Positions 30,301 to 46,217 of a DNA stretch of 64,000 nucleotides are shown one piece after another. The notes beneath the pieces were generated by a model that was not told the DNA's origin, did not search any database, and saw nothing but the letters and a program-made list of their open reading frames with translations. The DNA lies in the IMG/VR virus record IMGVR_UViG_3300029288_004944, positions 1-64,000 of that record; one strand, 5' to 3'. The DNA is from a virus (Duplodnaviria > Caudoviricetes). The translations under genes and the position numbers were made by a program. The stretch's first letter is position 1, and each line of letters starts with the position of its first letter.

Positions 30301-33300
30301 TCGGGATAAAACACAGGTTCTGCTTTTGCTCCACAATCACATTTAACTTTTTGTGTTCTTGAAATTTCTTGCAATTTTTCTTCTATTTGTTGTGGTGTCA
30401 TTTTAGATCTTGCTTCTTTTAATATAGGTCTTTCAAATTCTATGACATCAGGACTATGAGAAACTATTCTCCAACCATCTGCTTTAAGTTTTTCCGCTTC
30501 TTTTATTCCTCTCTCTGTTCTTAAGTCTACCCTTTTATATTCATATTTCGATGCCACTTTATGGGATACAACTTTTTCAATATCCCCTTCCCCCAAATCA
30601 AATGTCATATCATCAGGCTCTATCTGTACCACATAAATCTTTTCTCCCATTAAACCATACGCCCCGACCAATGTAACAACATCCCCTTTATGTAAACCCG
30701 AACTTGCAAATTCATCTGTCAATACCCTTACAGAATCACCCTCTTTATATTCATCCTGATCTGCTGTTTTTAAATTACGACTACTGCCGGCATTTTTAAT
30801 GCTACCCTCTGTCTCAAAATCAAAGGTATCCATATATCCTGAATCCACTGCCCATACACGAAGTTCATCACTCATTTGAGATGAATCTCCATCCACATTG
30901 TTTACAAGGAATTTAAGAGCATCTTCCTGTGTGGCTCCTTCGTTCTCCATATATTTATCATACCACATTTTTTCCATATGATCCAATTGATTTATATCTA
31001 TGTTTACTTTTTTCAATGCTGTCTTTAATGATCCCTCTATTCTACTATATGATGGGCTTAAAACACTGTACCCCATATCACTTGCTAAACCTAAAAATTT
31101 ATCATACTCATTTTCAGGAAATGAAAAATGTGTAGCCAATTCAGTTGTCAAACCCATTTGCTGTCTAAGTTTAATTATATCTGTTTCATTAGGATAACTG
31201 ATTATTGTATACAAACCATCTTTCAGGTCTATTTCTATATCACCTTTAGGCGACATAAAATCCTTTATTTGACATATATCTTCTTGAGGGGAAATTTCCT
31301 TGTCTGCCATCTTTAATGAAGCATTTTTTATTTTCATTTTTTCTTTCTTATATGCTTCAGATTCTCCATACTCAGGATTGTCTATATCTACGGGACCACT
31401 AATATATACGGGTTTGCCCATAAAAGATTGTTCTTCAAAATACTTTACTGCATCTTCGTATTTATCGGTATCAAATCTTTTAGCATTCTGATACTTAATA
31501 GCATCTTGTTCTTCATCGTATACACCTTCTTCAACTACCCAATACATATTATTTTTCCCAAGATCTTTTTTATCCACATCAAATTTTTCTCCGCATTTCG
31601 TGCAGATCTTTTTATCATAAACAGTGGATGTTTCATTTTCAGTACCGCATTTTGGACACGCGACTTTTATTTTTTTTGCTGACACTTTCTTATATACCTT
31701 AAGTTTTTTTATCATAAGAACTGCTTTAACCCTTTCAATATCCAAATCTTTACCCTTATAACTATCCATGGCATTCAACTCCGCTAATTCCGCTTCCAAT
31801 TCATCAATAGATAATTTCTCTATATCTTCAAATCTCAGTGATGCTTCTTTAAAATCTCTACGTTCTTTGTATTTTTCATATCTTTCTTTTGGCGATAAAG
31901 AATCATCTTCTTGACATCTTTTACATTTATCATCAAAATGTTCACCATCTTCTTTGGTAAATTTTTTTCCGCATATAATACAATTTTGTTTAGATACTAT
32001 ATTCAAAGATGCTTCAATATCTTCAGGAGATTCTTTAGGCGTCTTATCTCCGGCTACGCTTCTGTATTTCTCGTTAAACCTATATTTGACAAATGCATTA
32101 TAAACATCTTTCAGACTTCCGACTTCCAATCTATCTCCACCGGCCCACAATTCTTGTTGACCGTAGGCTCCGCCCAACTCAAAATTCGTCCCATACTCTT
32201 TATTATTTTGTTCAATCAATTCTCTTAATTCAGAAATAGATATTTGCTTTGATACTCTTTCAAAACTCGGCGAAAAACTAACGGCGACAGCCTGCCTTGC
32301 AGGGAGATCAGGATTCAACCGTGTGGGAAGAGGGGGGGAGGGGGGGGAGAAAATTACTTTCTTTCCCACCACTACAACCGATATCTTCTTTAATTCTGAT
32401 ATAGGAGCAATATCAACCTCATATAATGAATGTTCATCTCCATCGTAATTATCATATATATAATTAATAGTTGCTCTTTCTGTTTCACTATTTATAAATT
32501 CAACCTTACCAGCTCTACCATTATACTCTACCTTATCGCCGGGCCCAATATCATAAGCCTGCTTCTTTACCCCTACTTTCCCACTATTTACTCCCACAGC
32601 CACCTGCCTCTGCCTTGGAGACCTTTCTACCCTTTGTCTCATAGGCTCTGTTCTCCCACGCCCAAACTCTGTTCTTTTAGCCACCTCTATCATTCTACCA
32701 ATGTCTTCTACTGACATTGAAGGAAACTTAAATCCTATTGTACTCTCAATTTCAGATTTGTCCATACCATCTTTGATATATTGTATAATCTCTCTAATAA
32801 CAGGTATCTCGGCTTTTCTCTTTAATCTCGCCATAGCAGGAACAAGTCTACGATCATTATCCAAATTCATTATTCTATTCCTTTCAGCCATCTCATTTAT
32901 CATAACCATTTGTTCTTCGGCTGTTGATAGACACTTCATACATTTCCCATTCATATCATGAATAGTATCCCTATCACAATTAGGACAATACTCAATATCA
33001 AGATCTTCCATAGATTCAAACTTTTCAACACCCACAGTTTTTTTCATATTAAATTTAAAATTCTCTTCTATTTCTAAAAATTCTCCATCCTCTCCCTTGT
33101 TGTAGATATCCGATAATTCAGATATTCCATACATATCTTTCTGAGAATCTTTTTTTTCTAACCATATGGTTCCTGGAGCAAATCCTTCTGTCTCTCCATA
33201 TTCTTTACCCCATGGCTCCATAAAATAATCACCATAACTCATTCTATTCACAGAATATTTTTTTCCATCCATTTCTAATGGATTCCCATTACCCCATAAT

Positions 33301-34070
33301 TTACGTAATTCAGATCCACTTATTAAAAATTCTTTCATTGCAATCTTTTCTTTTTTTTCTATTGTTTTTCTAACGCCATTCACTTCATACCATTCTATGT
33401 CATTAAACCTATCTAAGTCTTTCTCTTGATTAAAAAATTCTTGTTCATCGGCAAAATGACTTGTCAGTGTACCAGGACGATTATTATATTTTACTCTTAT
33501 AACAACCCTATCTCCTGCTTGCCCTTTCATAACATCATAAGCATTACCATCTGCCCTTTTCCCAATTGTTCCACGTGGAACAATCCTTTTCTTATTTTTA
33601 TGTTTCTTAACTACTTCAATTTCTTCAATATATTGATTACACTTATTTATAACTTCTCCATACCATCCTGTCTTTTCAGATTGATATAGGCTTTGCTCTA
33701 ATTCATCTATCATTCCATCTGGTATATTATTTTCAGATACAAATCGTGCAACCTGAGAGATTATTTCGCTTCCTACTCTCTGCTTAAACTCATCTGATTC
33801 AGTAAAAAGATTATAAGCATCCTCAACAATATCAGCATCTGTTCTTTCTTGGGATTGTAAATCTTTTTTATCTTGATCGCTCAATTCAAACCATTCGCCT
33901 CTTGCTCTCCCATCCCTTTCCCACTCCTCCTGCATTTCCCTAAATTCTTGCTTCGAACCATAATTGTCTTCACTATTACCATCGTTCCCCCAACCTCCAT
34001 CTCCGGCTATAACTTTCTTCTTGCTATTTTTATCTATCGCTACAAACTTTTTCTTGATAAAATCTACCAT
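27330..34070 (-). CDS. Giant modular (polyvalent-type) protein, 2246 aa
   Basis: More than 20 short modules (SH3-like, zinc ribbons, helical, a DUF7007-like WG...TASHGG...EED.EW module) separated by basic K-x-A linkers. Confidence 0.85.
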   Translation of the reverse strand: MVDFIKKKFVAIDKNSKKKVIAGDGGWGNDGNSEDNYGSKQEFREMQEEWERDGRARGEWFELSDQDKKDLQSQERTDADIVEDAYNLFTESDEFKQRVGSEIISQVARFVSENNIPDGMIDELEQSLYQSEKTGWYGEVINKCNQYIEEIEVVKKHKNKKRIVPRGTIGKRADGNAYDVMKGQAGDRVVIRVKYNNRPGTLTSHFADEQEFFNQEKDLDRFNDIEWYEVNGVRKTIEKKEKIAMKEFLISGSELRKLWGNGNPLEMDGKKYSVNRMSYGDYFMEPWGKEYGETEGFAPGTIWLEKKDSQKDMYGISELSDIYNKGEDGEFLEIEENFKFNMKKTVGVEKFESMEDLDIEYCPNCDRDTIHDMNGKCMKCLSTAEEQMVMINEMAERNRIMNLDNDRRLVPAMARLKRKAEIPVIREIIQYIKDGMDKSEIESTIGFKFPSMSVEDIGRMIEVAKRTEFGRGRTEPMRQRVERSPRQRQVAVGVNSGKVGVKKQAYDIGPGDKVEYNGRAGKVEFINSETERATINYIYDNYDGDEHSLYEVDIAPISELKKISVVVVGKKVIFSPPSPPLPTRLNPDLPARQAVAVSFSPSFERVSKQISISELRELIEQNNKEYGTNFELGGAYGQQELWAGGDRLEVGSLKDVYNAFVKYRFNEKYRSVAGDKTPKESPEDIEASLNIVSKQNCIICGKKFTKEDGEHFDDKCKRCQEDDSLSPKERYEKYKERRDFKEASLRFEDIEKLSIDELEAELAELNAMDSYKGKDLDIERVKAVLMIKKLKVYKKVSAKKIKVACPKCGTENETSTVYDKKICTKCGEKFDVDKKDLGKNNMYWVVEEGVYDEEQDAIKYQNAKRFDTDKYEDAVKYFEEQSFMGKPVYISGPVDIDNPEYGESEAYKKEKMKIKNASLKMADKEISPQEDICQIKDFMSPKGDIEIDLKDGLYTIISYPNETDIIKLRQQMGLTTELATHFSFPENEYDKFLGLASDMGYSVLSPSYSRIEGSLKTALKKVNIDINQLDHMEKMWYDKYMENEGATQEDALKFLVNNVDGDSSQMSDELRVWAVDSGYMDTFDFETEGSIKNAGSSRNLKTADQDEYKEGDSVRVLTDEFASSGLHKGDVVTLVGAYGLMGEKIYVVQIEPDDMTFDLGEGDIEKVVSHKVASKYEYKRVDLRTERGIKEAEKLKADGWRIVSHSPDVIEFERPILKEARSKMTPQQIEEKLQEISRTQKVKCDCGAKAEPVFYPEDELYAWNCPKCDIDFIRDPGEKQMRVISGQGMCDLSEWYGKHYKKAYYTYKVGDKVISIKHIEEADDRGKEVDIPKGAEGVVGEIDGNSFKVEFSGGKEVWFSHGMEIGYIKPLNKKASLTQEQEDAVVKMKEKYDIRDYTIKEIVGNTYLIFTDMRQQVWSSKWMGNEWGIVKRIGDIEDGKIKWKDIADDLNLNSKLKVNAEGFGRGDIGTVQEAIAQIRDLAKNEREFRNGIKSLAWKFSLAFYKEYKEKYGEYPIGYVELDKAIPWYTSEAYKDQIVVDVGQSEMESDKGFQGTIEEVMEDVHNLKPRGKSSKIIQDDIMYYVEGKRSEASLKVNASDEGETIYLSPYATVVAIPIRWNHIESEDGIELEGGYYDVIDYDRVDGQKENEILIAENLSVGIEKGSKPVEFQPSDKHRFLIDEKDLRHFKEYEYSDKKASLKIKAVGHEFDEEPNDNMLENVDYAIWWENAYDPGMIDDPEEKGMDPEDLKNKWYKDIMDKITFDTGVVMGKNLEENLKKLVDNGFSIYDSNSETLIWKPETVKKYYKGNGEKTANYDVDISGEPTDSMWGKVQQCIKIDDGIYKVFTASHGGIMVKKEIGDKLLTEETKKEWKYGEEGWYSFEEDNEWLIAVNEIPAVKKYYTRESNLKKIKHKADQEYPDTYFEDVGFANSDNVSEGLVSVENYFLTPEGLIAKMREWQESEHGVEAWAYDLMKKDLERKGYDVPKDIVRVEDNIESNLKKKSNEYSKEDELIESDRELDRLKQKLKKIELGKDKRYSDFEKDKEIKVLKNAIKGLELHIDVIKKDKVMFDFIDSQDGQSIDTVVSALVSKFNVSENEANKIIKEWQAEQNVEALDHELLLSRTSPTSKGLSRTRIQEEGYYRDSDLKEFMEKRAYKNEVTVPLPEIIKEFETKDGWKTFVFEDWRVTFYKEEKGEDVDINEGNIYLKMPNKSLEELTEEEKKEWIEPIMPQIHEIMIMEANKRK

Positions 34071-34125: not shown

Positions 34126-34147
34126 AAGATCTGCCGTAGCAGATCCC
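34126..34147 (-). terminator. Stable hairpin with UACG tetraloop
   Basis: GGGATCTGC-TACG-GCAGATCTT between the small-gene cluster and the giant gene; weak U-tract. Confidence 0.5.
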
Positions 34148-34169
34148 ATTCACCTTTAATATAAAGGCT

Positions 34170-34375: not shown

Positions 34376-34729
34376 TTATTCTCTTATTCCAACAACCTTA
34401 ACTAAATGAACATTTTCAATCTTTCTCCTGTGTGCCTCTCTTTCTATTTGACCTATCAAGGACTGCAATACCCAATCCGGATTATGCGATTGAACTTGCT
34501 CATTATAAACTTGTGCCCATTGAACAAACACACGAGATGCAGATGCATCTAATACCCTCTGCCCTATTCGTATTGTCATTGTATCATAATCTTCATTCTT
34601 AACTAATTCATATTTACGCACTAATTCCTCATATCTCTGACCGGGAGTTTGATGTTTTGTTTTTATATCAGCATCACTAATTTCATCATTTTGTCCCCAC
34701 CTCTTTATCATAATATCTATTAAGCCCAT
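34376..34729 (-). CDS. RW-leader family protein, body type A
   Basis: MGLIDIMIKRWGQ. Confidence 0.8.
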   Translation of the reverse strand: MGLIDIMIKRWGQNDEISDADIKTKHQTPGQRYEELVRKYELVKNEDYDTMTIRIGQRVLDASASRVFVQWAQVYNEQVQSHNPDWVLQSLIGQIEREAHRRKIENVHLVKVVGIRE

Positions 34730-34745
34730 GGCTGCTCCGATACAC

Positions 34746-35153
34746 TCATCTTACTCCCTTATAAGTAAATAAACCACCACTAATTTCCCTTCCCTCTCCC
34801 TCGCATTGTTTCCCTGCTCTTTCTACAATCTGATCTATCAAGTATCTATATGATTTCGCATTCCCCCACATTTTTATATAGTCATAGGAAACAAGTGCCC
34901 ATATTGGCCTTACTCTTTCATCTTTCAATAGACCACTCATTACCTTACTGTTAAAATCCTCTACTATATTAATAGATAAATTATCAACACTTAAAGAAAA
35001 CATTAAATTATACTTTGAAACTAAATTAAACAACTCGTTGGCTTCTGTGCGATTAAACTTTAAGTCTCTTTTAAAGAGCCTATAAAGTTCCTGCCTTTCA
35101 TCTTCTTTTACAGGATCTCTCCATCTTTCTATCATCACATCTATTATATTCAT
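34746..35153 (-). CDS. RW-leader family protein, body type A
   Basis: MNIIDVMIERWRD; WALVSY...LIDQI. Confidence 0.8.
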   Translation of the reverse strand: MNIIDVMIERWRDPVKEDERQELYRLFKRDLKFNRTEANELFNLVSKYNLMFSLSVDNLSINIVEDFNSKVMSGLLKDERVRPIWALVSYDYIKMWGNAKSYRYLIDQIVERAGKQCEGEGREISGGLFTYKGVR

Positions 35154-35160
35154 TTTATCC

Positions 35161-35349
35161 TTATGTTAAACCACTTGTTATATGTAATCCATTATACCAA
35201 CGACTCCCCTTGACAGATATTATTTCTTCATTTCCATCTCTTGTTTCAATTGTGCGTTGCAGATACGTTGCATAGCATTCATATTCATTCTTTTTTTCAT
35301 CTATTACATCCGGTCCCCACCGTCTTATCACATCACATATTAAACTCAT
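35161..35349 (-). CDS. RW-leader family protein (short)
   Basis: MSLICDVIRRWGPDV. Confidence 0.7.
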   Translation of the reverse strand: MSLICDVIRRWGPDVIDEKKNEYECYATYLQRTIETRDGNEEIISVKGSRWYNGLHITSGLT

Positions 35350-35802
35350 TTATTTCTCCCCACTATCCTTCTTCTCCTGTTCTTGTCTTAACCAAGGTCT
35401 GTCATAACACTCTCCCACCACCTGTGTTGCATACTCATTGCATATACGTTCTTCAAAATCCTTTTCGTGGGCATCATCTCCTGACAGATCTTCTTCTTTC
35501 GGAGATCCACTTACTCTCCATAAGATCATTCTTAAACCCGATCTATATACATTATAATGCGCTATTTCGTGGTACGTAATCCAAAGAACTGAACTATCTA
35601 TTTCACTTTCATCATTAAATATATAAATACATTCATCCTGAAAATATGTAAAACCCCTTGCTTTTAATATATCTTTATCATCTCCTGTCCAACCCTTAGC
35701 ACGCATAAACCCTACTTGATCGGACTTAGATATAAACGTCAAATATAACCCAAACGATTTTGCTACTTTCCTGCATTCGGCCATACCTTGTTCTGTTATC
35801 AT
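35350..35802 (-). CDS. Zincin metallopeptidase (ImmA/IrrE-like)
   Basis: YHEIAHY HEXXH motif plus downstream EERICNEYA. Confidence 0.75.
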   Translation of the reverse strand: MITEQGMAECRKVAKSFGLYLTFISKSDQVGFMRAKGWTGDDKDILKARGFTYFQDECIYIFNDESEIDSSVLWITYHEIAHYNVYRSGLRMILWRVSGSPKEEDLSGDDAHEKDFEERICNEYATQVVGECYDRPWLRQEQEKKDSGEK

Positions 35803-35820
35803 TTATTACATCTCCTTTCA

Positions 35821-36339
35821 CTATCTCGGACCAGGATACGATGTCATTCCATCACTATCATTTTCTTCATCTTCACCCGATGATCTAATATTATCTATCC
35901 ACCTACCTCTCTGTGCTGCTTCAAGAACTAATCTATCATTGCCCACTATTACTTCTTCATCTCTTCTTTGAGCGGCTCTTTGAACACTCATTTGAGCCTT
36001 TAGTGCCTTTTCTTCGCACAATCTTTCTATTCTTGCCTCATCACTCATTTGTCCTATAAGATATTCTTCTATCTTATCAAACAAATATTGATGCACATTC
36101 TCTACACCAATCTCTTTGATCTCATCATATGAAACCCTAATCATTGCAGACCAAACAGTAAGTTCACATTTAAAAATTGTTATTTCCTTAATTTCAGACT
36201 GGTCAGCATACATTAAATGATTTTCTCTCATAAGATTATATAACTCAATAGGTATTAAACCAACATATCCTGACCATTGATTCTTTACCCTACTATTGTC
36301 ATTTCCCCATCTTCTGATTACATTATCTATTACACTCAT
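35821..36339 (-). CDS. RW-leader family protein, body type A
   Basis: MSVIDNVIRRWGND; IRVSY...LFDKI. Confidence 0.8.
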   Translation of the reverse strand: MSVIDNVIRRWGNDNSRVKNQWSGYVGLIPIELYNLMRENHLMYADQSEIKEITIFKCELTVWSAMIRVSYDEIKEIGVENVHQYLFDKIEEYLIGQMSDEARIERLCEEKALKAQMSVQRAAQRRDEEVIVGNDRLVLEAAQRGRWIDNIRSSGEDEENDSDGMTSYPGPR

Positions 36340-36343
36340 TTTA

Positions 36344-36688
36344 TTACTGTCCCCCACCTATTTCTTTTATTCTACTCCAATATACATCTTGTGGCAAAGA
36401 ACTCTGCATTCTTCTTATAATCTGACCTAAAAGTATTCCAAATATATCTTCATCAGTATATCCCATTTTGTCTTTATAACTAACATCTGCCCAACAATTA
36501 CGAAGTGAATCATCACTTTTATCCACTAAAAGTATTCTACCTGATTGTTTATCATCTACAAGTCTAAGATTGTTTATTGCTATTGCTTTCTCTAATGATG
36601 CCTCAAATGAAGAGATAGGACAATTTGACTTGTCCTTTATCATTTCTTTATCTTTCCACCTATTAATCATTATGTCTATTATACTCAT
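36344..36688 (-). CDS. RW-leader family protein, body type A
   Basis: MSIIDIMINRWKD; WADVSY...LLGQI. Confidence 0.8.
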   Translation of the reverse strand: MSIIDIMINRWKDKEMIKDKSNCPISSFEASLEKAIAINNLRLVDDKQSGRILLVDKSDDSLRNCWADVSYKDKMGYTDEDIFGILLGQIIRRMQSSLPQDVYWSRIKEIGGGQ

Positions 36689-36700
36689 TCTGAACTCCCC

Positions 36701-37060
36701 CTACCTTACCCCCGAACTTTCCATCTTTACCCCACACTCTTTACACCCATCCCACAATAAAGACATGGGCAATCCTATCTCTTCTGCCGATCTTTCAATC
36801 TGTTTAGACTTTGGTATCCGGCCACCCTTTTTCTTATTATAAACACGCGTCCATTTCTTTTCTTTATTCATATCCCAATCGCCTCTTTCAAGATAAGAAC
36901 AATAACCATTGGCTTGATCAGGTTTATCTTTTCTTAATGACCAATAAGGACAAACCCCTGGCCGAAAACCTTTACCATACATACTATGACAATATGGGCC
37001 GGCAGGAATCCTTCTCTTATCTTTCTTTAAACCTACAACATTCTTTGCTATTGATTTCAT
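36701..37060 (-). CDS. Cys-rich hypothetical protein
   Basis: IPAGPYC...CPYW...GYCSYL...LLWDGCKEC. Confidence 0.75.
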   Translation of the reverse strand: MKSIAKNVVGLKKDKRRIPAGPYCHSMYGKGFRPGVCPYWSLRKDKPDQANGYCSYLERGDWDMNKEKKWTRVYNKKKGGRIPKSKQIERSAEEIGLPMSLLWDGCKECGVKMESSGVR

Positions 37061-37380
37061 TTCTTTAATCCCCTTGCTTTCTGTTTATTAGCCTTATCCC
37101 ATTTCCTATTCTCTTTTATCTGCTTCTTTTCTTTTGCTTTCCAATCACCACCCACTTTCTTATTACTCACATTTCCTATCGTTACTTCCATTGGCCACTC
37201 ACTTGGACACTCCACTCCATCAGGAACGATTATTTTACTAACCTTTGCTCCATTGATATACAACTTATTCTCAACTACTGCGATATATAACCATTCTCCA
37301 TTCTCTGCCTTAACCCACTCAGGATTTACTATCTTCATTATCTTTTCCTCCCCTCTACCTATACTTTCAGTTGGTGTCAT
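37057..37380 (-). CDS. Hypothetical protein
   Basis: ORF coupled to the next gene; true start may be the internal MKIVNP. Confidence 0.65.
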   Translation of the reverse strand: MTPTESIGRGEEKIMKIVNPEWVKAENGEWLYIAVVENKLYINGAKVSKIIVPDGVECPSEWPMEVTIGNVSNKKVGGDWKAKEKKQIKENRKWDKANKQKARGLKK

Positions 37381-37405
37381 TTTGACACCGACTCATATTC
37401 CCACC

Positions 37406-37795
37406 CTACTTCTTTTTCTCTTTAAACTTAGGCTCTGTGTTTGTCATTATTGATACAGCCAGGATTAACCCATTAGCCATACCCATAAAATATTCTTCAT
37501 CCAAACAAGCCTGCTCATCTTTACATTGTATATCTCTTACATTGATAAGATCTTTCAAGTTCTCTTCTAATGGTTTCTTTTGATCATATTTACCCATCTT
37601 AACAAGAGCAGATAATTTGGATTGTATTCTTTCTGCTTTCGTTATACTACCATTTACCACACCACTCTTCCCGCCTTTCAGTTCATCACATTCTGTGACA
37701 GACTGACTTTCTTTTAACTTTCTTTCTCCTAAATTAAGAGTAAGCCCATCATCATTCATTGTCATTGCTTTTAATTCACGTGTAAACTTATTCAT
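37406..37795 (-). CDS. Hypothetical protein (MNKF leader)
   Basis: MNKFTRELKAM; C-terminal YFMGMANGLILAVS helix. Confidence 0.75.
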   Translation of the reverse strand: MNKFTRELKAMTMNDDGLTLNLGERKLKESQSVTECDELKGGKSGVVNGSITKAERIQSKLSALVKMGKYDQKKPLEENLKDLINVRDIQCKDEQACLDEEYFMGMANGLILAVSIMTNTEPKFKEKKK

Positions 37796-37836
37796 TTAGA
37801 TCTCCCAAGTTCTTTCTCACTCTCTTTCTTATTGTC

Positions 37837-38082
37837 TTATTTACTCTCTTCATTGTCTTCGGGAAACTCCGGCACACCTGCCCATTCTAACAACTGAACA
37901 TCTCCAGGTTCTATATACTCTGCAAGGCTTTGTAATTCTGCAAGTTCAAGATACGACATACTTTCATTAATTATTTGTTTTCTTAAGTATTCCAATCTTT
38001 CTTTGATGTGTTTCATATCTATTGCTTCTTTATCTATTCCACCACCTGCCAATTTATGTAGTTCTTTTTGAAACTTATTCAT
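37837..38082 (-). CDS. Small acidic protein (MNKF leader)
   Basis: MNKFQKELHKLA; LLEWAGVPE; AGGAGGAG RBS. Confidence 0.75.
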   Translation of the reverse strand: MNKFQKELHKLAGGGIDKEAIDMKHIKERLEYLRKQIINESMSYLELAELQSLAEYIEPGDVQLLEWAGVPEFPEDNEESK

Positions 38083-38168
38083 TCAACTCCTCCTTATCCC
38101 CACATTTTCTATATTGCTTACATTAACTATATCATTTAATTTATTTATTACTATTGTTACTATCAATT

Positions 38169-38435
38169 TTATTTTAACATACTAAGTATAGCACACACAT
38201 TGTCATTTGTCAAATAATGAACTAATTTATTATTATTATACTTTTTTGCTACTCTTCGAATTGTTCCATCTTCTATGTCTTTCCATCCAAGGATTTCCAT
38301 ACCCACTATCTTATTACGACTATCCAAATCCACAATTATATTCTCGCCTTCCCTCACAGTTTTTTCTATCTTATTATCAGATACATAAACATATACTACT
38401 CTTGCTTCTATATCATATGTTATTTTCATTCCCAT
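38169..38435 (-). CDS. DUF2283-family protein
   Basis: KITYDIEARVVYVYV...IIVDLDSRNKIVGMEIL. Confidence 0.8.
   Translation of the reverse strand: MGMKITYDIEARVVYVYVSDNKIEKTVREGENIIVDLDSRNKIVGMEILGWKDIEDGTIRRVAKKYNNNKLVHYLTNDNVCAILSMLK
38185..38213 (-). promoter_or_regulatory. Sigma70-type promoter P3, inside the 3' end of the DUF2283 gene
   Basis: TTGACA-AATGACAATGTGTGTGC-TATACT (17-bp spacer). Confidence 0.75.
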
Positions 38436-38472
38436 TCTCCTCTGTTAATCTTTTCAACACTTTCCCCTTTCT

Positions 38473-41400
38473 CTATTCCACCCTACCCGCCTCTACCACA
38501 ACTCCCCCATTCATGCTATAAACTTCACCTGTGTCCATATCTTTAATCTCATTTATCATTACCTTAGATCCTGGAATTAACTTTATCTCACTCTCAGGGT
38601 AAGGTATATCAGCATCCCCTGTATTCTTTTGTAATGTTTCTATCCAATCTACATTTTGTTTACTTACTTCACCTTTCACCACTACTTCCGGCCACCCCTC
38701 ATTTGATTCCCCTTTTGCATTCTCATAAACTGTGGCCTGTCCTAAATCCCATGTCCAATACACACCCATAGATGGCCAATCTTCTAATAGGAGTTCATCT
38801 TTAATACTCTTTACAAATTCTTGTACATCCTTTACTGCTAATGCTCTAAATACCGGAAAAGGATCTGTGAACCCTAAAAATCTCTTCTTAGATGCTTCAA
38901 ATGCTTCTATTGCTTCTTCGGGATAGTTCTGATAGAACTCATCCACTTCTCCACCCGGCTGATCATTGATCAGATCTTCTATTGTTATATTCTCCAAGGA
39001 TACAGATGCTTTTCTTTTCAATCCCCTATATTCGCCATACTTCTTTATAAATTCTTCTATACTATAAAACCCATCCTCACTTTGAGCAAAGGTCTCAACC
39101 AAAATCTTACGTGGTTTAAAGTTTATAATTATATCAAACCATTTCCTAAGAGTATCCACATTCTCTACCTCAACACCCATTAAATTATTCTGTTCCATTC
39201 TTACTCTTGTCCATCCTAACAATATTAATGCTTCTATCTTATTATTATACTCAGGTATTGTAATTCCATATTCTTCTTTTAACATCTCTATATTATTAAA
39301 TATCCATTCTTCGTGTTCTCCCGTAGATTCTTCTACTCCAACATTATATATCTTACCCACAGGATCAATCCAGTATGCACCCAAATTTCCTTTTGCTGCT
39401 TCTTTTAATCTCCCCTCTATCTCGAACTTCTCTATTGTCGTATCTTTCTTAGACAACTCTATCTCTTTTATCTGCCACTCTATTTCCGGTTCTTCATCCA
39501 CCAACTCCTCCGTCTCTCTTAGTTTCTTGCCTTTCTTTAAATAGGCTATCGTGATATGCGGAGTGTAATCAAAGTCATCCTTGACTTCAAACTCTTTGGC
39601 GAGATCGGAGTGAAGTTCTTTCAAATCTTGAGACTCTAATTTCAGCACAGCCACATCATATTCTTTACTGTGAGTGAAATAATCTATCTTGGCGATCTTG
39701 GCGATTAATTGGCGATTGGCCACAAGTGATTGAATATCAGATATAGAGGCAGAGTCAATACCATAGCAAAGGGTTGTGTGGGGGGATGGGGGAAATCCTC
39801 CATCCATCTCATTACTTTCTGCATCAGACAGATCTTCTTTTGGAATACTGTTTTGAACTTTCTTTATCCATTGTTTTAACTCTTTTGGTATGTCAGACGT
39901 TTGCACACTACCATGATCGTAATCTGCTCTTATTACTATCCCACCTCTTCTTATCAACACTCCCACTTTCTCGGATGTTAAATGTTCTTCATCTCCTACC
40001 GTTAATTCTAACTCTTCTTTGTTTACTATCCGATCTTTTGAAATTGAATTATCTATCACTATATCCCCACCTATTAAATCAGGGTGTGATTCTATATAAT
40101 GTTTGAATATTAGATCTGCTCTATCGTCTTCTGCCACACCCTCTTCCCCCTCACTACTTTCCCCATATGTTTCCTCTTCCGGATATAACTTATCATACTC
40201 TGCTACCGGCCACATTATCTCTATATCCACAGAATCAGGGCTATTTGAATTCATTGCCCTATATGATTTCTCACCCAACACTGTATAAACGATACCAAGG
40301 TCTGTATCCTCAGCCCTAAGCCCATTTTCCAATATACTCTTTACATTCTCTCTGCTTGTTTGGTGGTGCAGGTCCACACCATTGGGATACTTATTCTTTA
40401 ACATCTCTATGAACTGTCTTTGATACTTTCCCATATCAAGATCATATTTCTCCCCTTTAACCCTACCCCTCATACTCGCACTTATCTTACTCCCATCCTT
40501 ACCTTCTTCTTTTGTGTGATACTTCTGCACTGTGCTATATTGTTTATTCTTTAAATCCTCGGCAAGATCATATATATCACGTATAACATCATATATCTCT
40601 TCTGCTTCTTTATTTTCCTCTTCTCCTGCCTCATCATACGCCCACGATAATATCTGATCAGAACTATGCCATGTTGATATAAGTTCATCCATTGCTTGCA
40701 ATATAGCCATTGGATCAATTGCTGATTTCAATTTCTCTATTTTCTTATTTACTTTATCCCAAAACCTTCCATACTCTTTTTCTTCAAATCTTCTACTTCT
40801 TTCTAACTCTTCAGGCGATACTCCCACTCTCTCCATAAGCGATAATATAATCTCTTTTGACTTCTCTGCTACCTGTGGATCTATTTCTCCCACTATCCCC
40901 TGCCTATATAACTCTTTAATCGTTTCTATATCGGATAGAGATAGCGAAGACAATTTGTCTATTTCGCCTCTCTTATTAACCTTTAACTCTTTCCACTCCC
41001 CTACTTCCCATTGCCCCATCTCTTTCTCAGACTTTATACCCTTCCCCTTTCTTTCCCCACCACCGTTTGTTATCTCCACTCTTAATATACCGTTCTCTGC
41101 CCCGGTCCCCACCACATAATCTTCACTATCATTTAATGTTTCCCCCACTTCCTCCGATAAATAACCCTCATCATCATATTCTGTATATGTATATCCGATT
41201 ACACTCTCCCCCACAGAGGCGGCGATGGAAGGAAATCTATCTGCCATAAACTTATCTACGGCTTCATTGTGAGTAAGACCTTTATACTCCGGCTTTTGAT
41301 ATATTGCTACCCAACATGGTTCCCCCCAATACTCATAGTATATTATCTTATCGCCTGCATTGATTACAATTACCCAATCCTCTGATCGTACCAAATCCCA

Positions 41401-41799
41401 CTGCCCCACACTTACATCTTTCTCAGGGTATGCCTTTTTCTTTTTAGCCATCTCTATATAATTCTTTCTCATTGAATCAGATTCATATTGTTTACTTTCT
41501 TTCTTTATTCCTACACCTATCCCCCCACTATTACTTGCCTCTACCTTTAGCGTAGCAGGCAATAGCCTTACTCCCTTCATACCACCAAACTCTAATAGAT
41601 CGTTTGCAGTAGCCAAACTTATAGCCTTTAACCCAATAGCCATTGTATACTTATTCTCTGCTACCTTGCGAGCCCAAGACAATAGAGATATATTCTTAGT
41701 CCCCCCCAATGTTTTTATGGCCTCAGAAATTAGTTCATTGGTGTCTATATTTAAGTCAGATAAATTTATAACTAAAGTATATCCGGATTGTTTTTTCAT
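38473..41799 (-). CDS. Polyvalent protein with two ART-like domains and a 2H phosphoesterase
   Basis: LHHQTS...SILENGL (H-type ART-like); PHTTL and PHITI (2H); VFRAL...GVYWTW...VDW...ESEI (R-S-E-type ART-like); start probably MKKQS after GGAG, ORF open to 41880. Confidence 0.8.
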   Translation of the reverse strand: MKKQSGYTLVINLSDLNIDTNELISEAIKTLGGTKNISLLSWARKVAENKYTMAIGLKAISLATANDLLEFGGMKGVRLLPATLKVEASNSGGIGVGIKKESKQYESDSMRKNYIEMAKKKKAYPEKDVSVGQWDLVRSEDWVIVINAGDKIIYYEYWGEPCWVAIYQKPEYKGLTHNEAVDKFMADRFPSIAASVGESVIGYTYTEYDDEGYLSEEVGETLNDSEDYVVGTGAENGILRVEITNGGGERKGKGIKSEKEMGQWEVGEWKELKVNKRGEIDKLSSLSLSDIETIKELYRQGIVGEIDPQVAEKSKEIILSLMERVGVSPEELERSRRFEEKEYGRFWDKVNKKIEKLKSAIDPMAILQAMDELISTWHSSDQILSWAYDEAGEEENKEAEEIYDVIRDIYDLAEDLKNKQYSTVQKYHTKEEGKDGSKISASMRGRVKGEKYDLDMGKYQRQFIEMLKNKYPNGVDLHHQTSRENVKSILENGLRAEDTDLGIVYTVLGEKSYRAMNSNSPDSVDIEIMWPVAEYDKLYPEEETYGESSEGEEGVAEDDRADLIFKHYIESHPDLIGGDIVIDNSISKDRIVNKEELELTVGDEEHLTSEKVGVLIRRGGIVIRADYDHGSVQTSDIPKELKQWIKKVQNSIPKEDLSDAESNEMDGGFPPSPHTTLCYGIDSASISDIQSLVANRQLIAKIAKIDYFTHSKEYDVAVLKLESQDLKELHSDLAKEFEVKDDFDYTPHITIAYLKKGKKLRETEELVDEEPEIEWQIKEIELSKKDTTIEKFEIEGRLKEAAKGNLGAYWIDPVGKIYNVGVEESTGEHEEWIFNNIEMLKEEYGITIPEYNNKIEALILLGWTRVRMEQNNLMGVEVENVDTLRKWFDIIINFKPRKILVETFAQSEDGFYSIEEFIKKYGEYRGLKRKASVSLENITIEDLINDQPGGEVDEFYQNYPEEAIEAFEASKKRFLGFTDPFPVFRALAVKDVQEFVKSIKDELLLEDWPSMGVYWTWDLGQATVYENAKGESNEGWPEVVVKGEVSKQNVDWIETLQKNTGDADIPYPESEIKLIPGSKVMINEIKDMDTGEVYSMNGGVVVEAGRVE

Positions 41800-42079
41800 T
41801 AGTTTTTTTACTCCAAAAAATATTATATATTTATGATTTCTCTTGTTCTTTCTAAGGTCTGAACTAATTACTTTTTGCATTTCTTAAAGTTAAAGGTGTC
41901 TGCGAGATAGATTTTTTTCGCTTTTTTCCATACTTCTATATATAAACTCTCTCTTTCCTCCCATATTCCCCCACCTTGTCTCCCCTTTACTCCACCTTTA
42001 CTATTCTTTTCTCCTTCTTTTCTCTAATCTTTCCTACTTAATACCCCCGTCACTGCATCATTATGACACAAACCACTCT

Positions 42080-42454
42080 CTACTCATATATCTCCACTAC
42101 CTCACTCTTACCCTTCCATTGTCCTATCCAATAGTCATCAAGATCTATCTTTACAAAATTATCATACACAAGTTCAGCCCTACCCATAACTATACAATAC
42201 TTGGAAGGCTTATCTAAAAAACCTAAGGTACCAAACCTATTAATACACACAAAACTACCACATACTAACTTAGTTGTCACTCTACTCATTGGTATCTTCT
42301 TATTGTTCTTGTCTATCTCTAATACCCAAAAAGACTTATCTGCCTTAGTAGAATGAAGATTTATAAACCTATAACCGTGTGGCGATATAAATTCTTTATC
42401 TTCTATATTCTTTCCCTCTCCCCACCTCTCTATCATTGTTTCTATTATTCCCAT
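42080..42454 (-). CDS. RW-leader family protein, body type B
   Basis: MGIIETMIERWGE. Confidence 0.8.
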   Translation of the reverse strand: MGIIETMIERWGEGKNIEDKEFISPHGYRFINLHSTKADKSFWVLEIDKNNKKIPMSRVTTKLVCGSFVCINRFGTLGFLDKPSKYCIVMGRAELVYDNFVKIDLDDYWIGQWKGKSEVVEIYE

Positions 42455-42472
42455 TGCTTCTCTCTCCCCTCT

Positions 42473-42790
42473 TTATACCTTTCCCTTATACTCAAACAAA
42501 TCTATTATTACAGCATCTGTATCACTTACAGAAACATCTATACTTTCGGCTGCTATACTTGCGATCCTTGCTTTAATTGCATAATATGGCCGAGGATCTC
42601 CTTCATAGTAAAACCCTGATCCATCAAAATAAATAAAAGCACTGTCTCCTACTCTTTTAACATCAACATCACAAAGCCTATACATTTTTCTTTCCGCATA
42701 AGGATACTCTTTTAACTTATATATCCTTATCTTTCTATCTCCTACTATATCTTTCCCCCACCTATTCACTATCGTATCTATCACACTCAT
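42473..42790 (-). CDS. RW-leader family protein, body type B
   Basis: MSVIDTIVNRWGKD after GGGGGAG. Confidence 0.8.
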   Translation of the reverse strand: MSVIDTIVNRWGKDIVGDRKIRIYKLKEYPYAERKMYRLCDVDVKRVGDSAFIYFDGSGFYYEGDPRPYYAIKARIASIAAESIDVSVSDTDAVIIDLFEYKGKV

Positions 42791-42806
42791 CTTGTACTCC
42801 CCCTTA

Positions 42807-43223
42807 CTACATCCACCTTTCAAAATCTCTTTGCTTATTCTTCTGTTTAAACACTTCTTCTACCACTCTTAACCCTCTCCACTTCTCTTTCCAATATTCA
42901 TTAACATCTATCCTCATACATTGCCCATTCCCATTTCTTGATATATCCTTTACTATACCTATATATGCTTTGTTTGATGTGGGCAAATTACTGGAAAAAA
43001 TCAATTGATTGCTATCACTTATAGTTATTATGTCTCCATTGCCAAGTATAAGATTTTTATCTATACATCCACTATATCCTTCTTTATCTATTTCTAAATA
43101 CCAATCGCCAGCACCTAATTGAAAACCATCACACATTCTATACACAAACCTGTATCCATTTTTACTCTTTATAGTCTTAACATCTTTTGCCCATCTCTTT
43201 ATCATAATATCTATTACATTCAT
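42807..43223 (-). CDS. RW-leader family protein, body type B
   Basis: MNVIDIMIKRWAKD; shares GYRF and YW..W.G..VVE with 42080..42454. Confidence 0.8.
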   Translation of the reverse strand: MNVIDIMIKRWAKDVKTIKSKNGYRFVYRMCDGFQLGAGDWYLEIDKEGYSGCIDKNLILGNGDIITISDSNQLIFSSNLPTSNKAYIGIVKDISRNGNGQCMRIDVNEYWKEKWRGLRVVEEVFKQKNKQRDFERWM

Positions 43224-43255
43224 AACTTCTCCACTACCTTTATTTCTTTAACCTT

Positions 43256-43603
43256 TCATATAGCAGGATCTATTCCTACCCATTCCACAACATACATCTT
43301 GCCAAAATCTCTTGTTCCATATACTTTGACACATACACTTCCATCAGGTTCGTTTATACAATCAATAAGTCCGTGCTGACAATTATCAGGATGTTCTTCA
43401 TTCTCATAATAGAACAAACCTTTATCATCAAAATAAACACAACTACTCTTTCTTATTATAGAAAGATCTGCATTTAATACTCTATACCTTTGACAATAAT
43501 CTTCCCCTAGAATATATCCATTATATCCTTCATTGACTATTTCCACTTCTCTGTGCCCGGCATCCGGCTTCCATCTACCTATAATTACCTCTATCAAGTT
43601 CAT
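43256..43603 (-). CDS. RW-leader family protein, body type B
   Basis: MNLIEVIIGRWKPD; VYFDDKGLFYYE resembles IYFDGSGFYYE of 42473..42790. Confidence 0.8.
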   Translation of the reverse strand: MNLIEVIIGRWKPDAGHREVEIVNEGYNGYILGEDYCQRYRVLNADLSIIRKSSCVYFDDKGLFYYENEEHPDNCQHGLIDCINEPDGSVCVKVYGTRDFGKMYVVEWVGIDPAI

Positions 43604-43871
43604 GCTCTCGTCCCCCTCTGATCCTCTCCATTGTTTGATGCCATAACACACTATTTCTCACTGCCGTTAATTGTTGCTGTAAAACTTGATTTCTTTGCAA
43701 AACATAACTTGTTTCAAGATCATACCGTGCTAATGAATTTATTGCATCCAACATAGATCCTGTTGTTATTTCACTTTTATTAGGCATTGAGATACAAGTT
43801 TCTGCTTTATCTTCCTCTACCTCTTTATTATCCTGTCCCCACCTGTGGATTATAATATCAATTACACTCAT
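43575..43871 (-). CDS. RW-leader family protein (helical body)
   Basis: MSVIDIIIHRWGQD. Confidence 0.75.
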   Translation of the reverse strand: MSVIDIIIHRWGQDNKEVEEDKAETCISMPNKSEITTGSMLDAINSLARYDLETSYVLQRNQVLQQQLTAVRNSVLWHQTMERIRGGREHELDRGNYR

Positions 43872-44275
43872 AAATTTATCCTATAAGCACTCATTGCATC
43901 GTATGCATCCACCGAAATATCTGTAAGAGTTCCCCTCATATTACTTCCTACGCATACAACCGTACCTTTCATTAATCTTACAACATTTGTTTCTCGATCT
44001 TTTTTAGGATCTCTATACATATATATTTCATTTGTTCCTCTTGCAATCCCATCATACCCCATTTTTTCTCCGGTATCACTTACTATGCTTATATATGAAC
44101 CATCAAGTGCAAAATCCACTTCATCTCTTAGTTTGGCCTTTAATCTCTTTCCATAAAGATTATGTATAAAATATCTATCAGCCTTCTTCCCTTTTGTAAT
44201 ATAAATAGGCAAGTCTTTATTTACTCCTTTTTTCCTACTATCCCATCTTGAAAGCATTGTTTCTATAACACCCAT
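43868..44275 (-). CDS. RW-leader family protein, body type B
   Basis: MGVIETMLSRWDS after GGGGGAG. Confidence 0.8.
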   Translation of the reverse strand: MGVIETMLSRWDSRKKGVNKDLPIYITKGKKADRYFIHNLYGKRLKAKLRDEVDFALDGSYISIVSDTGEKMGYDGIARGTNEIYMYRDPKKDRETNVVRLMKGTVVCVGSNMRGTLTDISVDAYDAMSAYRINL

Positions 44276-44298
44276 CCTAAACTCCCCCACACATATCA

Positions 44299-44574
44299 CT
44301 AACTTCTCATTCTTATCGTGTTTGCATCTACTATGGATTCAACTAACCCCAACACTCTCCCACCATTATAAGAACCTACATCCGGAGAATAAACATGCCC
44401 ATTGGCATCAGCACAAACAAGACCGTTTACTTGAAAATCTCTACTATTATCCACATAAACTTCCCACAACTGTCCCTTAGGAGACATAAACACATTATTG
44501 GGAAAATCATTACAATTCTTTTTTTCCACCACATCCGGACCCAATCGTTTAATAATATCTTGTTTTATATCCAT
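44299..44574 (-). CDS. RL-variant leader protein, body type B
   Basis: MDIKQDIIKRLGPDV, identical to the N-terminus of 45795..46217. Confidence 0.8.
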   Translation of the reverse strand: MDIKQDIIKRLGPDVVEKKNCNDFPNNVFMSPKGQLWEVYVDNSRDFQVNGLVCADANGHVYSPDVGSYNGGRVLGLVESIVDANTIRMRS

Positions 44575-44584
44575 TTCTTAATTC

Positions 44585-44818
44585 CTATTTAAAAAATACT
44601 ATCTTTAATGGCAAATCTTTCAATAAATTAGGGATTTGATCTTTTTTTAATTTAATTTGATCTTTACGTTTAGAACAAAAACTCTTATTAAATGTATCTA
44701 AAACAATTTCCATTAATTCAATGCATTTCCTACAATATACATGTTCTTTGCCCATTATATGAAATATCCCTATTTTATTTTTTTCTCCACACCTATCGCA
44801 CACTTTATTCCTTTCCAT
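44585..44818 (-). CDS. Small zinc-finger protein
   Basis: CDRC...YCRKC. Confidence 0.7.
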   Translation of the reverse strand: MERNKVCDRCGEKNKIGIFHIMGKEHVYCRKCIELMEIVLDTFNKSFCSKRKDQIKLKKDQIPNLLKDLPLKIVFFK

Positions 44819-45008
44819 TGTATACCTCCCCCTTATTTATTTAACCTGACTTTTCTCCAACTGTATAGCCCTGCGTTTCATATCATTTTTAGACATAGTA
44901 AAATTACTTATAACAACAACTGAAAGAATTATTATTATGACTGACACTATCAAAACATTTATCCAATCTATTTTATTGTTTTCTCCCATTTGTATCCTCC
45001 TACTTTAG

Positions 45009-45278
45009 TTAGGCTTCTTTATCTTCCGTAAGACTGCTATCTGCTTCGCTAAGGATATTCTGCATATCTTTCTTTGATTTTGGCACAGGAACTTTTTTAT
45101 CTGCCACATTGAACCATCCATATTGAGCAAGTATACCGATCAAAACCCATCCCCATTCCGGAGAAGGATTTCTTCTTGCCATAAGACACACTAAGAGCAT
45201 AGCCAACAAACAGAGTAAGAACTTTCTGCTCAGCATTGAACTCTTTAAACTCTCTTTCTTATTTTCTGTATTTGCCAT
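45009..45278 (-). CDS. Probable holin / small two-TM membrane protein
   Basis: SRKFLL then two hydrophobic segments and a charged tail. Confidence 0.5.
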   Translation of the reverse strand: MANTENKKESLKSSMLSRKFLLCLLAMLLVCLMARRNPSPEWGWVLIGILAQYGWFNVADKKVPVPKSKKDMQNILSEADSSLTEDKEA

Positions 45279-45293
45279 TTCTCTTAATCCTCC

Positions 45294-45773
45294 TTACATT
45301 TCTCTTTTTTTCTGTTTTATTATTCTATATTTTACTCTTTTGTCTAATTCAATTCCTGGATTTTCATAGTTCGTCATCATTCTTGCTATAACAGGCACTA
45401 AATCCTTTTGACCAAGTTTTTTTGCTCGTTTCATACAAATCTCAGGATCTGTGGGTATATGTATAAATTCCAAATCATAATTATATTCTCTTGCCAAACT
45501 AATCCAATGAAGTCTTAAAGAAAAAGTAAGAAACGTACCATCTACTAAAATATTCTTATTTTGATCTAAAAAATATCTGGCCATAAACTTAATTGTTGCC
45601 CAAACAAGATCTTCTGCCGGAGCATAAAACCTTTGACCATGAACAACAAGCCTCATATCATCAGGACAAAGATATATATATTCAGGATTTTTCTTTAAAA
45701 ACTTCTTAGCATATGTCGTTTTTCCAGATCTCGGATATCCCATCATAAGAATCATCTTATTTCTTTTCTTCAT
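45294..45773 (-). CDS. P-loop kinase (AAA_33 / polynucleotide-kinase-like)
   Basis: MMGYPRSGKTT, PDDMR, ILVDGT, CMKRA. Confidence 0.85.
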   Translation of the reverse strand: MKKRNKMILMMGYPRSGKTTYAKKFLKKNPEYIYLCPDDMRLVVHGQRFYAPAEDLVWATIKFMARYFLDQNKNILVDGTFLTFSLRLHWISLAREYNYDLEFIHIPTDPEICMKRAKKLGQKDLVPVIARMMTNYENPGIELDKRVKYRIIKQKKREM

Positions 45774-45794
45774 TTATTACCCCCTTATTCCTTT

Positions 45795-46217
45795 CTAATC
45801 CCCAAACTCTCTATAATCCCGGAAACCATGCATTTCCCTATCAAGTTCAGGGTTGTCGCCATCAATCTCAATACTCCCCCTAAAATCATTATCAATTGAA
45901 AAAGCAGACCTATCATCAAAATTATCATGCAATGGAATAGTTATAAATAATTGTTTTGGATTGTCAGATATACCACTAAGTGTGCCAACAACTTTACAAT
46001 CCTCAGGAAGTGTTGCCCCTATTTCATTTGCAAATAACCTACTATCCTCTGCCACACAAACAAGATCTCCTATATGCCACCCTATTATATCAATATTACT
46101 AATTCTAAATACAGCAGCCGAAATCCTGCTGAACGTATACTCATAACAACCCTTTAAATTTTTATTTACTTTAACATCAGGGCCCAATCGTTTTATAATA
46201 TCTTGCTTTATATCCAT
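45795..46217 (-). CDS. RL-variant leader protein, body type B
   Basis: MDIKQDIIKRLGPDV; GDLVCV...VVGTL. Confidence 0.8.
   Translation of the reverse strand: MDIKQDIIKRLGPDVKVNKNLKGCYEYTFSRISAAVFRISNIDIIGWHIGDLVCVAEDSRLFANEIGATLPEDCKVVGTLSGISDNPKQLFITIPLHDNFDDRSAFSIDNDFRGSIEIDGDNPELDREMHGFRDYREFGD

Follow-up and report, generated by a model that had tools for sequence, protein, structure and literature searches.

A short N-terminal leader common to otherwise diverse small proteins of an uncultured jumbo phage

The DNA considered here is a stretch of 64,000 nucleotides (the window) at positions 1 to 64,000 of the IMG/VR record IMGVR_UViG_3300029288_004944, a sequence of 139,457 bp from an uncultured tailed jumbo phage (Duplodnaviria; Caudoviricetes) in which all genes lie on the minus strand. 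In two arrays of the window (34376-36688, or cluster 1, and 42080-44275, or cluster 2) and at further places in the record, small genes open with a common peptide of about a dozen residues, hereafter the leader, and continue with bodies that mostly differ. The earlier note on this DNA had listed fourteen open reading frames (ORFs) of this kind. All of them are present, on the minus strand, with the N-termini and the starts that it quoted. In what follows, the genes are designated by the coordinate of their start codon, and features are collected in Table 1.

The leader and its occurrences

A leader profile of 18 columns finds 24 places in the record, with E-values from 3e-9 to 5e-5, more than the fourteen first claimed. 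Each of the 24 is at an ORF start and covers residues 1-14. Ten of these places are outside the window, seven of them at 67667, 101183, 103810, 122532, 126851, 131340 and 131713 and the others as given in Table 1. Of the 212 non-nested ORFs of at least 40 amino acids (aa) on the minus strand of the record, about 11% are leader genes. A contig of 216,802 bp in ENA represents the same genome, its coordinates being compatible with circular permutation of the record. The census covers the 139,457-bp record and about 30 kb more of this contig. The fixed distance of R10-W11 from the initiator Met, on which the earlier note had insisted, is confirmed as a strict N-terminal register both by the profile and by a loose regular expression of the core motif. 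In 46,666 ORF residues, this expression has 24 matches, 23 at residue 4 of members and one internal and chance-like, and the only member that it misses is 60783. R10-[WL]11 is absent from every non-member ORF examined.

Two types of leader can be described. Type A has the consensus M-[SGN]-h-I-[DE]-x-h-h-x-R-W-G and type B reads MDIKQDIIKRLGPD. With the intermediates MDIIQTIINRWSEG, MDLKEEVIKRWSPD and MDLIEIMINRWK, the two types grade into one another. In the common plan, Met1 is followed by a small or polar residue and hydrophobic residues occupy positions 3, (4), 7, 8 and 11; the peptide is closed by Arg10 (Lys once), Trp/Leu11, Gly/Ser/Ala12, often Pro13, and Asp14. Over residues 2-12, the helical hydrophobic moment averages 0.50 in members and 0.29 in other N-termini. 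In AlphaFold2 (AF2) models of two members, a helix is predicted, with low confidence, at residues 3-10 or 3-11 and separate from the body. The spacer behind the leader, which had been called charged, has only a modest charge (0.17-0.61 of residues 13-30). Membrane targeting was considered and set aside, the net charge of residues 1-14 being about zero and type B being hydrophilic, with a mean hydrophobicity of -0.23.

Selection on the leader and exchange of the bodies

Conservation of the leader is that of a peptide. In the type B leader (nine genes, codons 2-12), the proportion of synonymous differences (pS) is 0.59 and that of non-synonymous differences (pN) is 0.034, which gives a pN/pS of 0.06. 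In the type A leader (eleven genes, codons 2-12), pS is 0.63, pN 0.29 and pN/pS 0.46. In codons 13-30 of either type, read ungapped so that positions are not homologous and serve as a baseline of unrelated sequence, pS is 0.59-0.68, pN 0.51-0.66 and pN/pS about 0.9-1. Synonymous sites of the type B leader are near saturation. Arginine is encoded by AGG, AGA, CGG, CGT, CGA or CGC and leucine by TTG or CTT, and the 40 nucleotides (nt) upstream of the leader starts have no mutual similarity. The codon survey and the pN/pS values thereby bear out the amino-acid-level conservation with varied codons that had been claimed, and these substitution patterns show a leader under strong purifying selection as a peptide. 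Since the synonymous divergence of type B equals that of unrelated sequences, conservation at the DNA or RNA level and homogenisation by gene conversion are both ruled out.

At least a dozen classes of body without detectable mutual similarity stand behind the leader. For sorting, the first 15 residues were removed and the remainders were clustered with phmmer/hmmsearch and compared with hhalign (16 groups, 120 pairs). A single pair of groups was significantly related, namely F1a and F1b (E 2.5e-9), the two halves of family F1, which consists of 34729, 35153, 36339 and 36688. Family F2a is the paralogue pair 42454/43223 and F2b the pair 42790/43603; a distant relationship of these two families with each other and with 46217 is possible (E about 0.003 for each comparison, non-significant after 120 tests). 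Seven dispersed genes, all outside the window, have bodies of MORN/YwqK-like type, and 35349, 43871, 44275, 44574, 46217, 60783, 96153, 98399 and 132900 are singletons. The statement that the genes share only the leader and have differing bodies therefore holds between groups; within the clusters of the window, the genes are largely paralogues (F1, F2a, F2b), with a single alpha/beta family in cluster 1 and at least two beta-rich ones in cluster 2. Searches of Pfam and PHROGs at permissive thresholds and of PDB sequence profiles gave no convincing match to any member.

In its AF2 model, with a mean predicted local distance difference test (pLDDT) of 57, F1 has an alpha/beta core (H-H-E-E-E-H-H) at pLDDT 60-84, and a coil lies between this core and the leader. 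The F2 model (pLDDT 48) is all beta after the leader helix. With an F1 that is modelled as alpha/beta, an F2 modelled as all beta and a dispersed set made of MORN repeats, the members would not be full-length homologues of one fold having the leader as a core helix, the arrangement that the earlier note had named as fatal to its proposal. With these models, no PDB entry reached E <= 1e-3 in Foldseek; the first-ranked one, SPO1 Acb4, had E 0.43 and is only a lead. A 295-aa member searched in the ESM Atlas gave nothing. At their C-termini, several type A members (34376-44275) have a motif aromatic-x-G-x-[RK], for example ...YKGVR, ...YKGKV, ...YPGPR or ...WKGK; in a MAFFT alignment, this glycine motif overlaps the Shine-Dalgarno sequence of the next gene in some cases, not in all.

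A relative of the phage, from JGI sample 3300037067, allows the leader and the bodies to be followed separately. At the site syntenic to 35349, the leader is kept at 13 of 14 residues and the body is an unrelated Cys-rich one of 126 aa. At the DNA level, a tract of about 50 nt that coincides exactly with the leader is about 94% identical, and the sequence on either side of it cannot be aligned. In the array of the relative, another leader is found on a new zinc-ribbon-like body of 101 aa. An attempt to find the Cys-rich body with and without leader (L009:6676-7056 versus a leaderless 64-aa gene) was abandoned because only CENCKxW is common to the two, at E about 0.005, which is too weak.

The dispersed members of the phage itself provide a second comparison. 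They contain repeated hairpin units (WxxNG...HRDNDLPA) homologous to the MORN_2/YwqK-like family. Pfam MORN_2 scores them at 18.9-23.3 bits, below its cut-off of 29.6. A profile built from the seven MORN paralogues retrieves 975 proteins (E <= 1e-3), and YwqK antitoxin names or PF07661 are common among them. About 970 of these homologues come from other sources. Among the best 20 off this contig, the sequences of which were inspected, only two have the leader: P0016 belongs to a close relative, and P0008 is identical to the product of gene 122532 of the phage itself. On MORN bodies, the leader is a lineage-specific addition. MORN-variant/YwqK-like repeats (COG2849; Pfam MORN_2) form the body of seven dispersed type B members, and the same body occurs in one type A member of the relative. 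There, a type A leader, MSIIDTVIKRWS, precedes a MORN body that hhalign aligns with the type B MORN family at a probability of 99.4% (E 5e-21), which indicates that the two leader types are interchangeable on one type of body. This gene (L011:1470-1775) is inserted between a kinase and a membrane-protein gene, directly after the counterpart of a 159-aa AAA_33 / Zeta-toxin-like kinase gene that, in the window, lies between tagged genes at 45294-45773. Taken together, these comparisons of sequences show that the leader is a separable module which combines with many unrelated small bodies.

The two parts also differ in tempo. Between the arrays and those of the relative, identity is 17-47% for bodies, one of which departs from this range at 86%, and 55-91% for flanking genes; the 14-residue leaders match at 6-14 of 14 positions, the hydrophobic positions and R-W/L being retained. 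At a MORN locus compared in two phages, three neighbour genes are 92-94% identical, the tagged gene 54%, and the leader matches at 17 of 21 positions. From these alignments, it is shown that the bodies evolve faster than the flanking genes. Truncated or frameshifted copies of two tagged genes are seen in a third sample (L010:1881-2033 and 2754-3118), and in one F1 orthologue of the relative (L009:5796-6218) a Lys replaces the leader Met, so that an upstream GTG start would be needed. Such copies suggest that gene decay and turnover are ongoing in the array. Tempo and broken copies together mark these genes as an arms-race set in which a single element is constrained.

The distribution of the leader is narrow. 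Against 1.84 billion representative proteins, a 30-position leader profile (HMMER) retrieves 20 at E <= 1e-3, of which 16 are the phage's own, three are orthologues from close relatives (P0016, P0127, P0133) and one is an unrelated repetitive protein. By this search, the leader is shown to be restricted to one phage lineage. The profile has no match in the whole 497-kb record of Bacillus phage G, degenerate DNA patterns of the type B leader have none in viral and metagenome contig sets, and a word-indexed protein search with the type A alignment returned only this contig's own proteins. The lineage itself is related to Bacillus phage G, is distant from T4 and has no cultured member. Its portal gene (133-1791) matches phrog_16240 at 1e-51, and the product is 35% identical to the phage G portal. 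The best DNA match of the phage is a landfill metagenome, possibly the source sample itself. No relative was found by megablast of the region against 50,697 phage records, nor any related locus with the portal as query.

Genomic setting and possible roles of the leader

Table 1. Leader genes of the window and of the remainder of the record, with neighbouring features (single positions are starts).
Feature	Position	Strand	Length (aa)	Leader or motif	Remarks
Leader gene	34376..34729	-	117	MGLIDIMIKRWG	Body family F1
Leader gene	34746..35153	-	135	MNIIDVMIERWR	Body family F1; AF2 leader helix 3-10 (pLDDT 33), alpha/beta core
Leader gene	35161..35349	-	62	MSLICDVIRRWG	Singleton body
Leader gene	35821..36339	-	172	MSVIDNVIRRWG	Body family F1; orthologue P0133: leader 12/14, body 47% identity
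Leader gene	36344..36688	-	114	MSIIDIMINRWK	Body family F1
Leader gene	42080..42454	-	124	MGIIETMIERWG	Beta-rich body family F2a
Leader gene	42473..42790	-	105	MSVIDTIVNRWG	Body family F2b
Leader gene	42807..43223	-	138	MNVIDIMIKRWA	Body family F2a; low-confidence AF2 model: helix 3-11, then all beta
Leader gene	43256..43603	-	115	MNLIEVIIGRWK	Body family F2b
Leader gene	43575..43871	-	98	MSVIDIIIHRWG	Singleton body
Leader gene	43868..44275	-	135	MGVIETMLSRWD	Singleton body
Leader gene, type B	44299..44574	-	91	MDIKQDIIKRLGPD	Non-MORN singleton body
Leader gene, type B	45795..46217	-	140	MDIKQDIIKRLGPD	Singleton body; orthologue P0127: leader 14/14, body 86% identity
Leader gene, variant	60361..60783	-	140	MDLAKEIAKRLGGD	Singleton body
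Leader gene outside window	96153			MDIIQTIINRWSEGK	GTG start
Leader gene outside window	98399			MDMKDEIIKKLGED	
Leader gene outside window	132900			MDLKEEVIKRWSPDV	
Giant multidomain gene	27330..34070	-	2246		DUF7007 domain; downstream of cluster 1; no leader
Polyvalent gene	38473..41880	-	1135		2H phosphoesterase / Acb1-like domain; downstream of cluster 2
HExxH protein gene	35350..35802	-	150		Inside cluster 1; no leader, no Pfam hit
Sigma-A-type promoter, consensus	38185..38213	-		TTGACA, 17 nt, TGTGCTATACT	1.5 kb upstream of cluster 1

Each cluster lies upstream of a giant gene, as the earlier note had stated, with a 64-aa gene between cluster 1 and the gene of the 2246-aa protein. The two arrays bracket the 1135-aa Acb1-like protein and precede the 2246-aa one. 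They are on the same strand as, and upstream of, the genes of the large terminase (2825-4483), portal, protease and major capsid protein. On the ENA contig, the genes downstream of that of the portal are, in order, one for a 993-aa protein whose N-terminal domain is a head-maturation protease, a 153-aa gene and the major capsid protein gene. The 153-aa gene (L006:16858-17319) has a leader-like N-terminus, MAIIIKKEVNRHWG, two residues out of register and not matched by the leader profile; it occupies the position of the phage G decoration protein gp26, to which its similarity is weak (E 0.018). In the 2246-aa protein, internal repeats usable as multiple docking modules could not be detected, nor does any body match this protein, and a cohesin-dockerin-like arrangement was rejected on these two grounds. 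The same protein contains seven [AG]-S-L-[KRT] motifs, the protease-scaffold protein (L006:13653-16634) has one, at residue 567, and the density across all ORFs is 0.32 per 1000 aa; these motifs could be processing sites. The 150-aa HExxH protein resembles ImmA/IrrE/DUF3920 proteins by ESM Atlas structure (TM 0.58-0.67, a lead only). Its gene is absent from the corresponding array of the relative, so that it is not an obligatory partner of the leader.

Members are tightly packed in operons, at -29 to 32 nt from the upstream gene. Downstream distances are mostly as small, with four exceptions (156, 181, 199 and -71 nt). The sigma-A-type promoter upstream of cluster 1 belongs to a set of seven near-identical copies in the record (TTGACAAATGACA...TGTGCTATAAT; consensus TTGACAAATGACAatAT.TGTGCTATAaT, with an extended -10), found in the window at 8564-8592, 27286-27314, 38185-38213 and 50977-51005 and outside it at G000 66140, 92898 and 102117. 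Several copies stand directly before HNH/NUMOD3 homing-endonuclease-like genes, and the one at 38213 has a conserved counterpart in the relative (L009, about 4060-4095). A generic sigma-70 scan did not rise above shuffled sequences, and the promoter searches did not define a class of late promoters. The intergenic regions that precede the two giant genes are conserved in the relative. One (34071-34169) contains two hairpins followed by TTATAATAATATAG, the other (41881-42079) a long purine-rich tract followed by GTTTATATATAGAAGTATGG. These regions may be regulatory or represent a late-promoter class. A second family with a common N-terminus, the zinc-ribbon start M(R)IRHC..C....NDGTL....C..CL, occurs at 62999-63898, 47656-48606, 26586-27257 and 23628-24584 and at G000 101195-102100. 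One of its members has NUMOD3 and HNH matches, and the family probably consists of homing endonucleases spread through the genome.

What the leader does may now be considered. The earlier note had proposed a portable tag that recruits a diversified library of proteins to one partner. A portable N-terminal tag, selection at the level of the peptide and diversified bodies are all supported by the above comparisons, and none of the partners then named (capsid, membrane or hub) has been identified. In the mechanism that we favour, the leader would be an address tag, an amphipathic helix of two and a half turns bearing Arg10-Trp/Leu11 and capped by Gly12, with x-Asp and then a variable linker behind it. 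Small binder or effector proteins, a library in rapid evolution, would be docked by this tag onto a partner common to all, and recognition of the tag by a single such partner is probable. That partner would be the assembling prohead, either its scaffolding core or the capsid interior. Packaged in the head, the tagged proteins would be injected together with the phage DNA, alongside the polyvalent anti-defence proteins encoded nearby. The prohead is ranked first among partners because T-even phages use that solution and because the arrays adjoin polyvalent proteins, upstream of the head module. By analogy with the capsid-targeting sequence (CTS) of T4, an encapsidation tag for injected effectors is accordingly a tentative choice, to which we would give somewhat less than an even chance.

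Several observations weigh against encapsidation. Ten members are inside glycan-synthesis, replication and repair operons, 0-24 nt from the upstream gene, and the sampled part of the ENA contig, roughly 30 kb (the head module and another roughly 20 kb), is free of leaders. The isoelectric points of members range from 4.6 to 9.8, which leaves no common DNA-friendly charge. No conserved motif resembling a protease cleavage site was found after the leader, and the head protease is weakly S78_2/XkdF-like, not gp21-like. Lastly, cluster 1, being downstream of a sigma-A-type promoter, may be expressed early; T4 internal proteins are likewise made early.

Given the lack of a recognisable cleavage site, the protease that is not gp21-like and the members in non-structural operons, docking to a hub other than the capsid is nearly as likely and has to be taken as a serious possibility. 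The variable bodies would then bind diverse targets and act as adaptors or inhibitors inside the infected cell, and an adaptor site on a protease/unfoldase, RNA polymerase, the replisome or the phage's own AAA+ ATPase could be such a hub. The evidence for modularity and selection applies equally here. Members spread through non-structural operons would be co-expressed with them, the promoter upstream of cluster 1 is of sigma-A type, and the tag is not followed by a recognisable cleavage site. An invariant Arg10-Trp/Leu11 on a short amphipathic helix would suit docking into a groove, and MORN/YwqK-like bodies are protein binders, named antitoxins in their sources. On the other side, no candidate hub has been identified, and we know of no precedent for a docking peptide of such a kind shared across a phage, which counts against the hub. 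Moreover, both arrays adjoin proteins of a class that is predicted to be packaged (PMC5512222). In its strictest form, where the tag plugs two dozen or more hypervariable binders into one intracellular hub, for example a host protease/unfoldase or a phage AAA+ machine, and is not a packaging signal at all, the proposal is rather doubtful. If it were true, the genes would form a programmable adaptor library sending many host defence proteins to a common fate, a viral effector-recruitment system without described counterpart in phages.

An explanation without external partner is unlikely. The leader would in this case be an intrinsic N-terminal helix, ancestral to bodies that have since diverged, which caps or stabilises each protein or drives homo- or hetero-oligomerisation. 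Tandem arrays are indeed typical of duplication followed by divergence, F1 and F2 are full-length paralogue families, and amphipathic helices, such as the raised hydrophobic moment of members suggests, often pack or bundle. However, identity between bodies of one family drops to about 45% behind a leader that hardly varies. The leader is also found on MORN beta-hairpin repeats, homologues of which fold in its absence, and at the site syntenic to 35349 the body was swapped behind an unchanged leader. The modelled coil between the leader (pLDDT 33) and the F1 core points in the same direction, weakly since the model is of low confidence.

Less probable still, and by a good deal, is a leader recognised and then removed by a dedicated enzyme for processing, modification or export, as in ribosomally synthesised and post-translationally modified peptides (RiPPs) or double-glycine bacteriocins. 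RiPP precursor families combine a conserved leader with a hypervariable core, the same logic as in the present genes, and one member ends in ...RLGG. However, Gly-Gly is found in only 1 of 24 leaders, no Peptidase_C39 (PF03412) match exists in the 139-kb record, itself incomplete, and the HExxH protein of cluster 1 has no counterpart in the array of the relative. In addition, the leader has only 12-14 residues, and the bodies are folded domains of 50-280 residues, not short cores. Finally, an element of nucleic acid that mimics peptide conservation, whether a region for translation initiation or regulation or a site of recombination, is hardly credible and looks largely refuted by pN/pS already: at one syntenic site, leader DNA does stand as an isolated stretch of identity with unrelated sequence on either side, and can for that reason serve as a recombination joint, but leader synonymous sites are as diverged as unrelated sequence (pS 0.59-0.66) with non-synonymous change suppressed, Arg and Leu codons come from different codon families, and upstream regions are unconserved.

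Should the leader be an encapsidation or docking signal, about 11% of the phage's genes, nearly all of them otherwise unannotatable, would fall into one class of delivered or co-recruited small effectors. Since the bodies evolve much faster than their neighbours and stand beside Acb1-like anti-defence domains, they are good candidates for new anti-defence proteins. A search for N-terminal peptides that are over-represented, in register, within a phage genome would offer a route to effector libraries elsewhere.

Comparison with known systems

The closest parallel is found in T-even phages, where internal proteins, diverse anti-defence proteins that have in common only a 10-residue CTS, are loaded onto the scaffolding core of the prohead and injected (PMC3012670, PMC9026906). 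In T4, this N-terminal tag of about 10 residues is the sole common element of small, diverse proteins of fast turnover (IPI, IPII and IPIII; propeptides occur in Alt as well), and it is portable to foreign proteins. The likeness lies in a short N-terminal peptide common to 24 members whose bodies are otherwise diverse. No homology to T-even internal proteins or to their CTS was detected, either with PHROGs and Pfam at permissive thresholds or with the leader profile in 1.84e9 proteins. Whereas the T4 CTS is removed by gp21, no conserved cleavage-like motif was seen to close the leader. Further differences are the number of members (24 or more versus a handful), the two graded leader types and the many members in non-structural operons. 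The principle of a short N-terminal address on hypervariable phage proteins is already known from T4. What differs in the present case is an unrelated tag sequence, a far larger set of clients with two graded tag types, the apparent lack of a protease-site feature, a spread beyond the structural region and a lineage without cultured member. If encapsidation is the role of the leader, the T4 principle extends to a distant lineage with a different tag sequence and far more clients, and a second natural peptide would be available for loading foreign proteins into phage heads.

Encapsulins and microcompartments make use of a similar device, a short terminal peptide with a flexible linker that directs unrelated cargo into a protein shell. 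The encapsulin cargo peptides are mostly C-terminal. The microcompartment peptide is an N-terminal amphipathic helix, conserved in pattern and not in sequence. Leader genes resemble the latter in having an N-terminal helix, as modelled, and a linker. The record contains no gene for a bacterial microcompartment shell protein (PF00936). Encapsulin shells are built on the HK97 fold, like phage capsids (PMC8346489). Unlike in both systems, the shell would here be a true phage capsid.

Finally, the polyvalent proteins of phages and conjugative elements are large and multidomain, and the prediction is that they are packaged and injected together with the DNA (Iyer et al. 2017, PMC5512222). They share with the tagged genes both the neighbourhood and a presumed role, the joint delivery of many disparate anti-host activities at the start of infection. 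In polyvalent proteins, the domains are fused into a single polypeptide, whereas in the present phage separate small genes carry a common tag. If the tagged proteins are indeed cargo of the head, these genes would represent a 'split' solution to the problem that polyvalent proteins solve.

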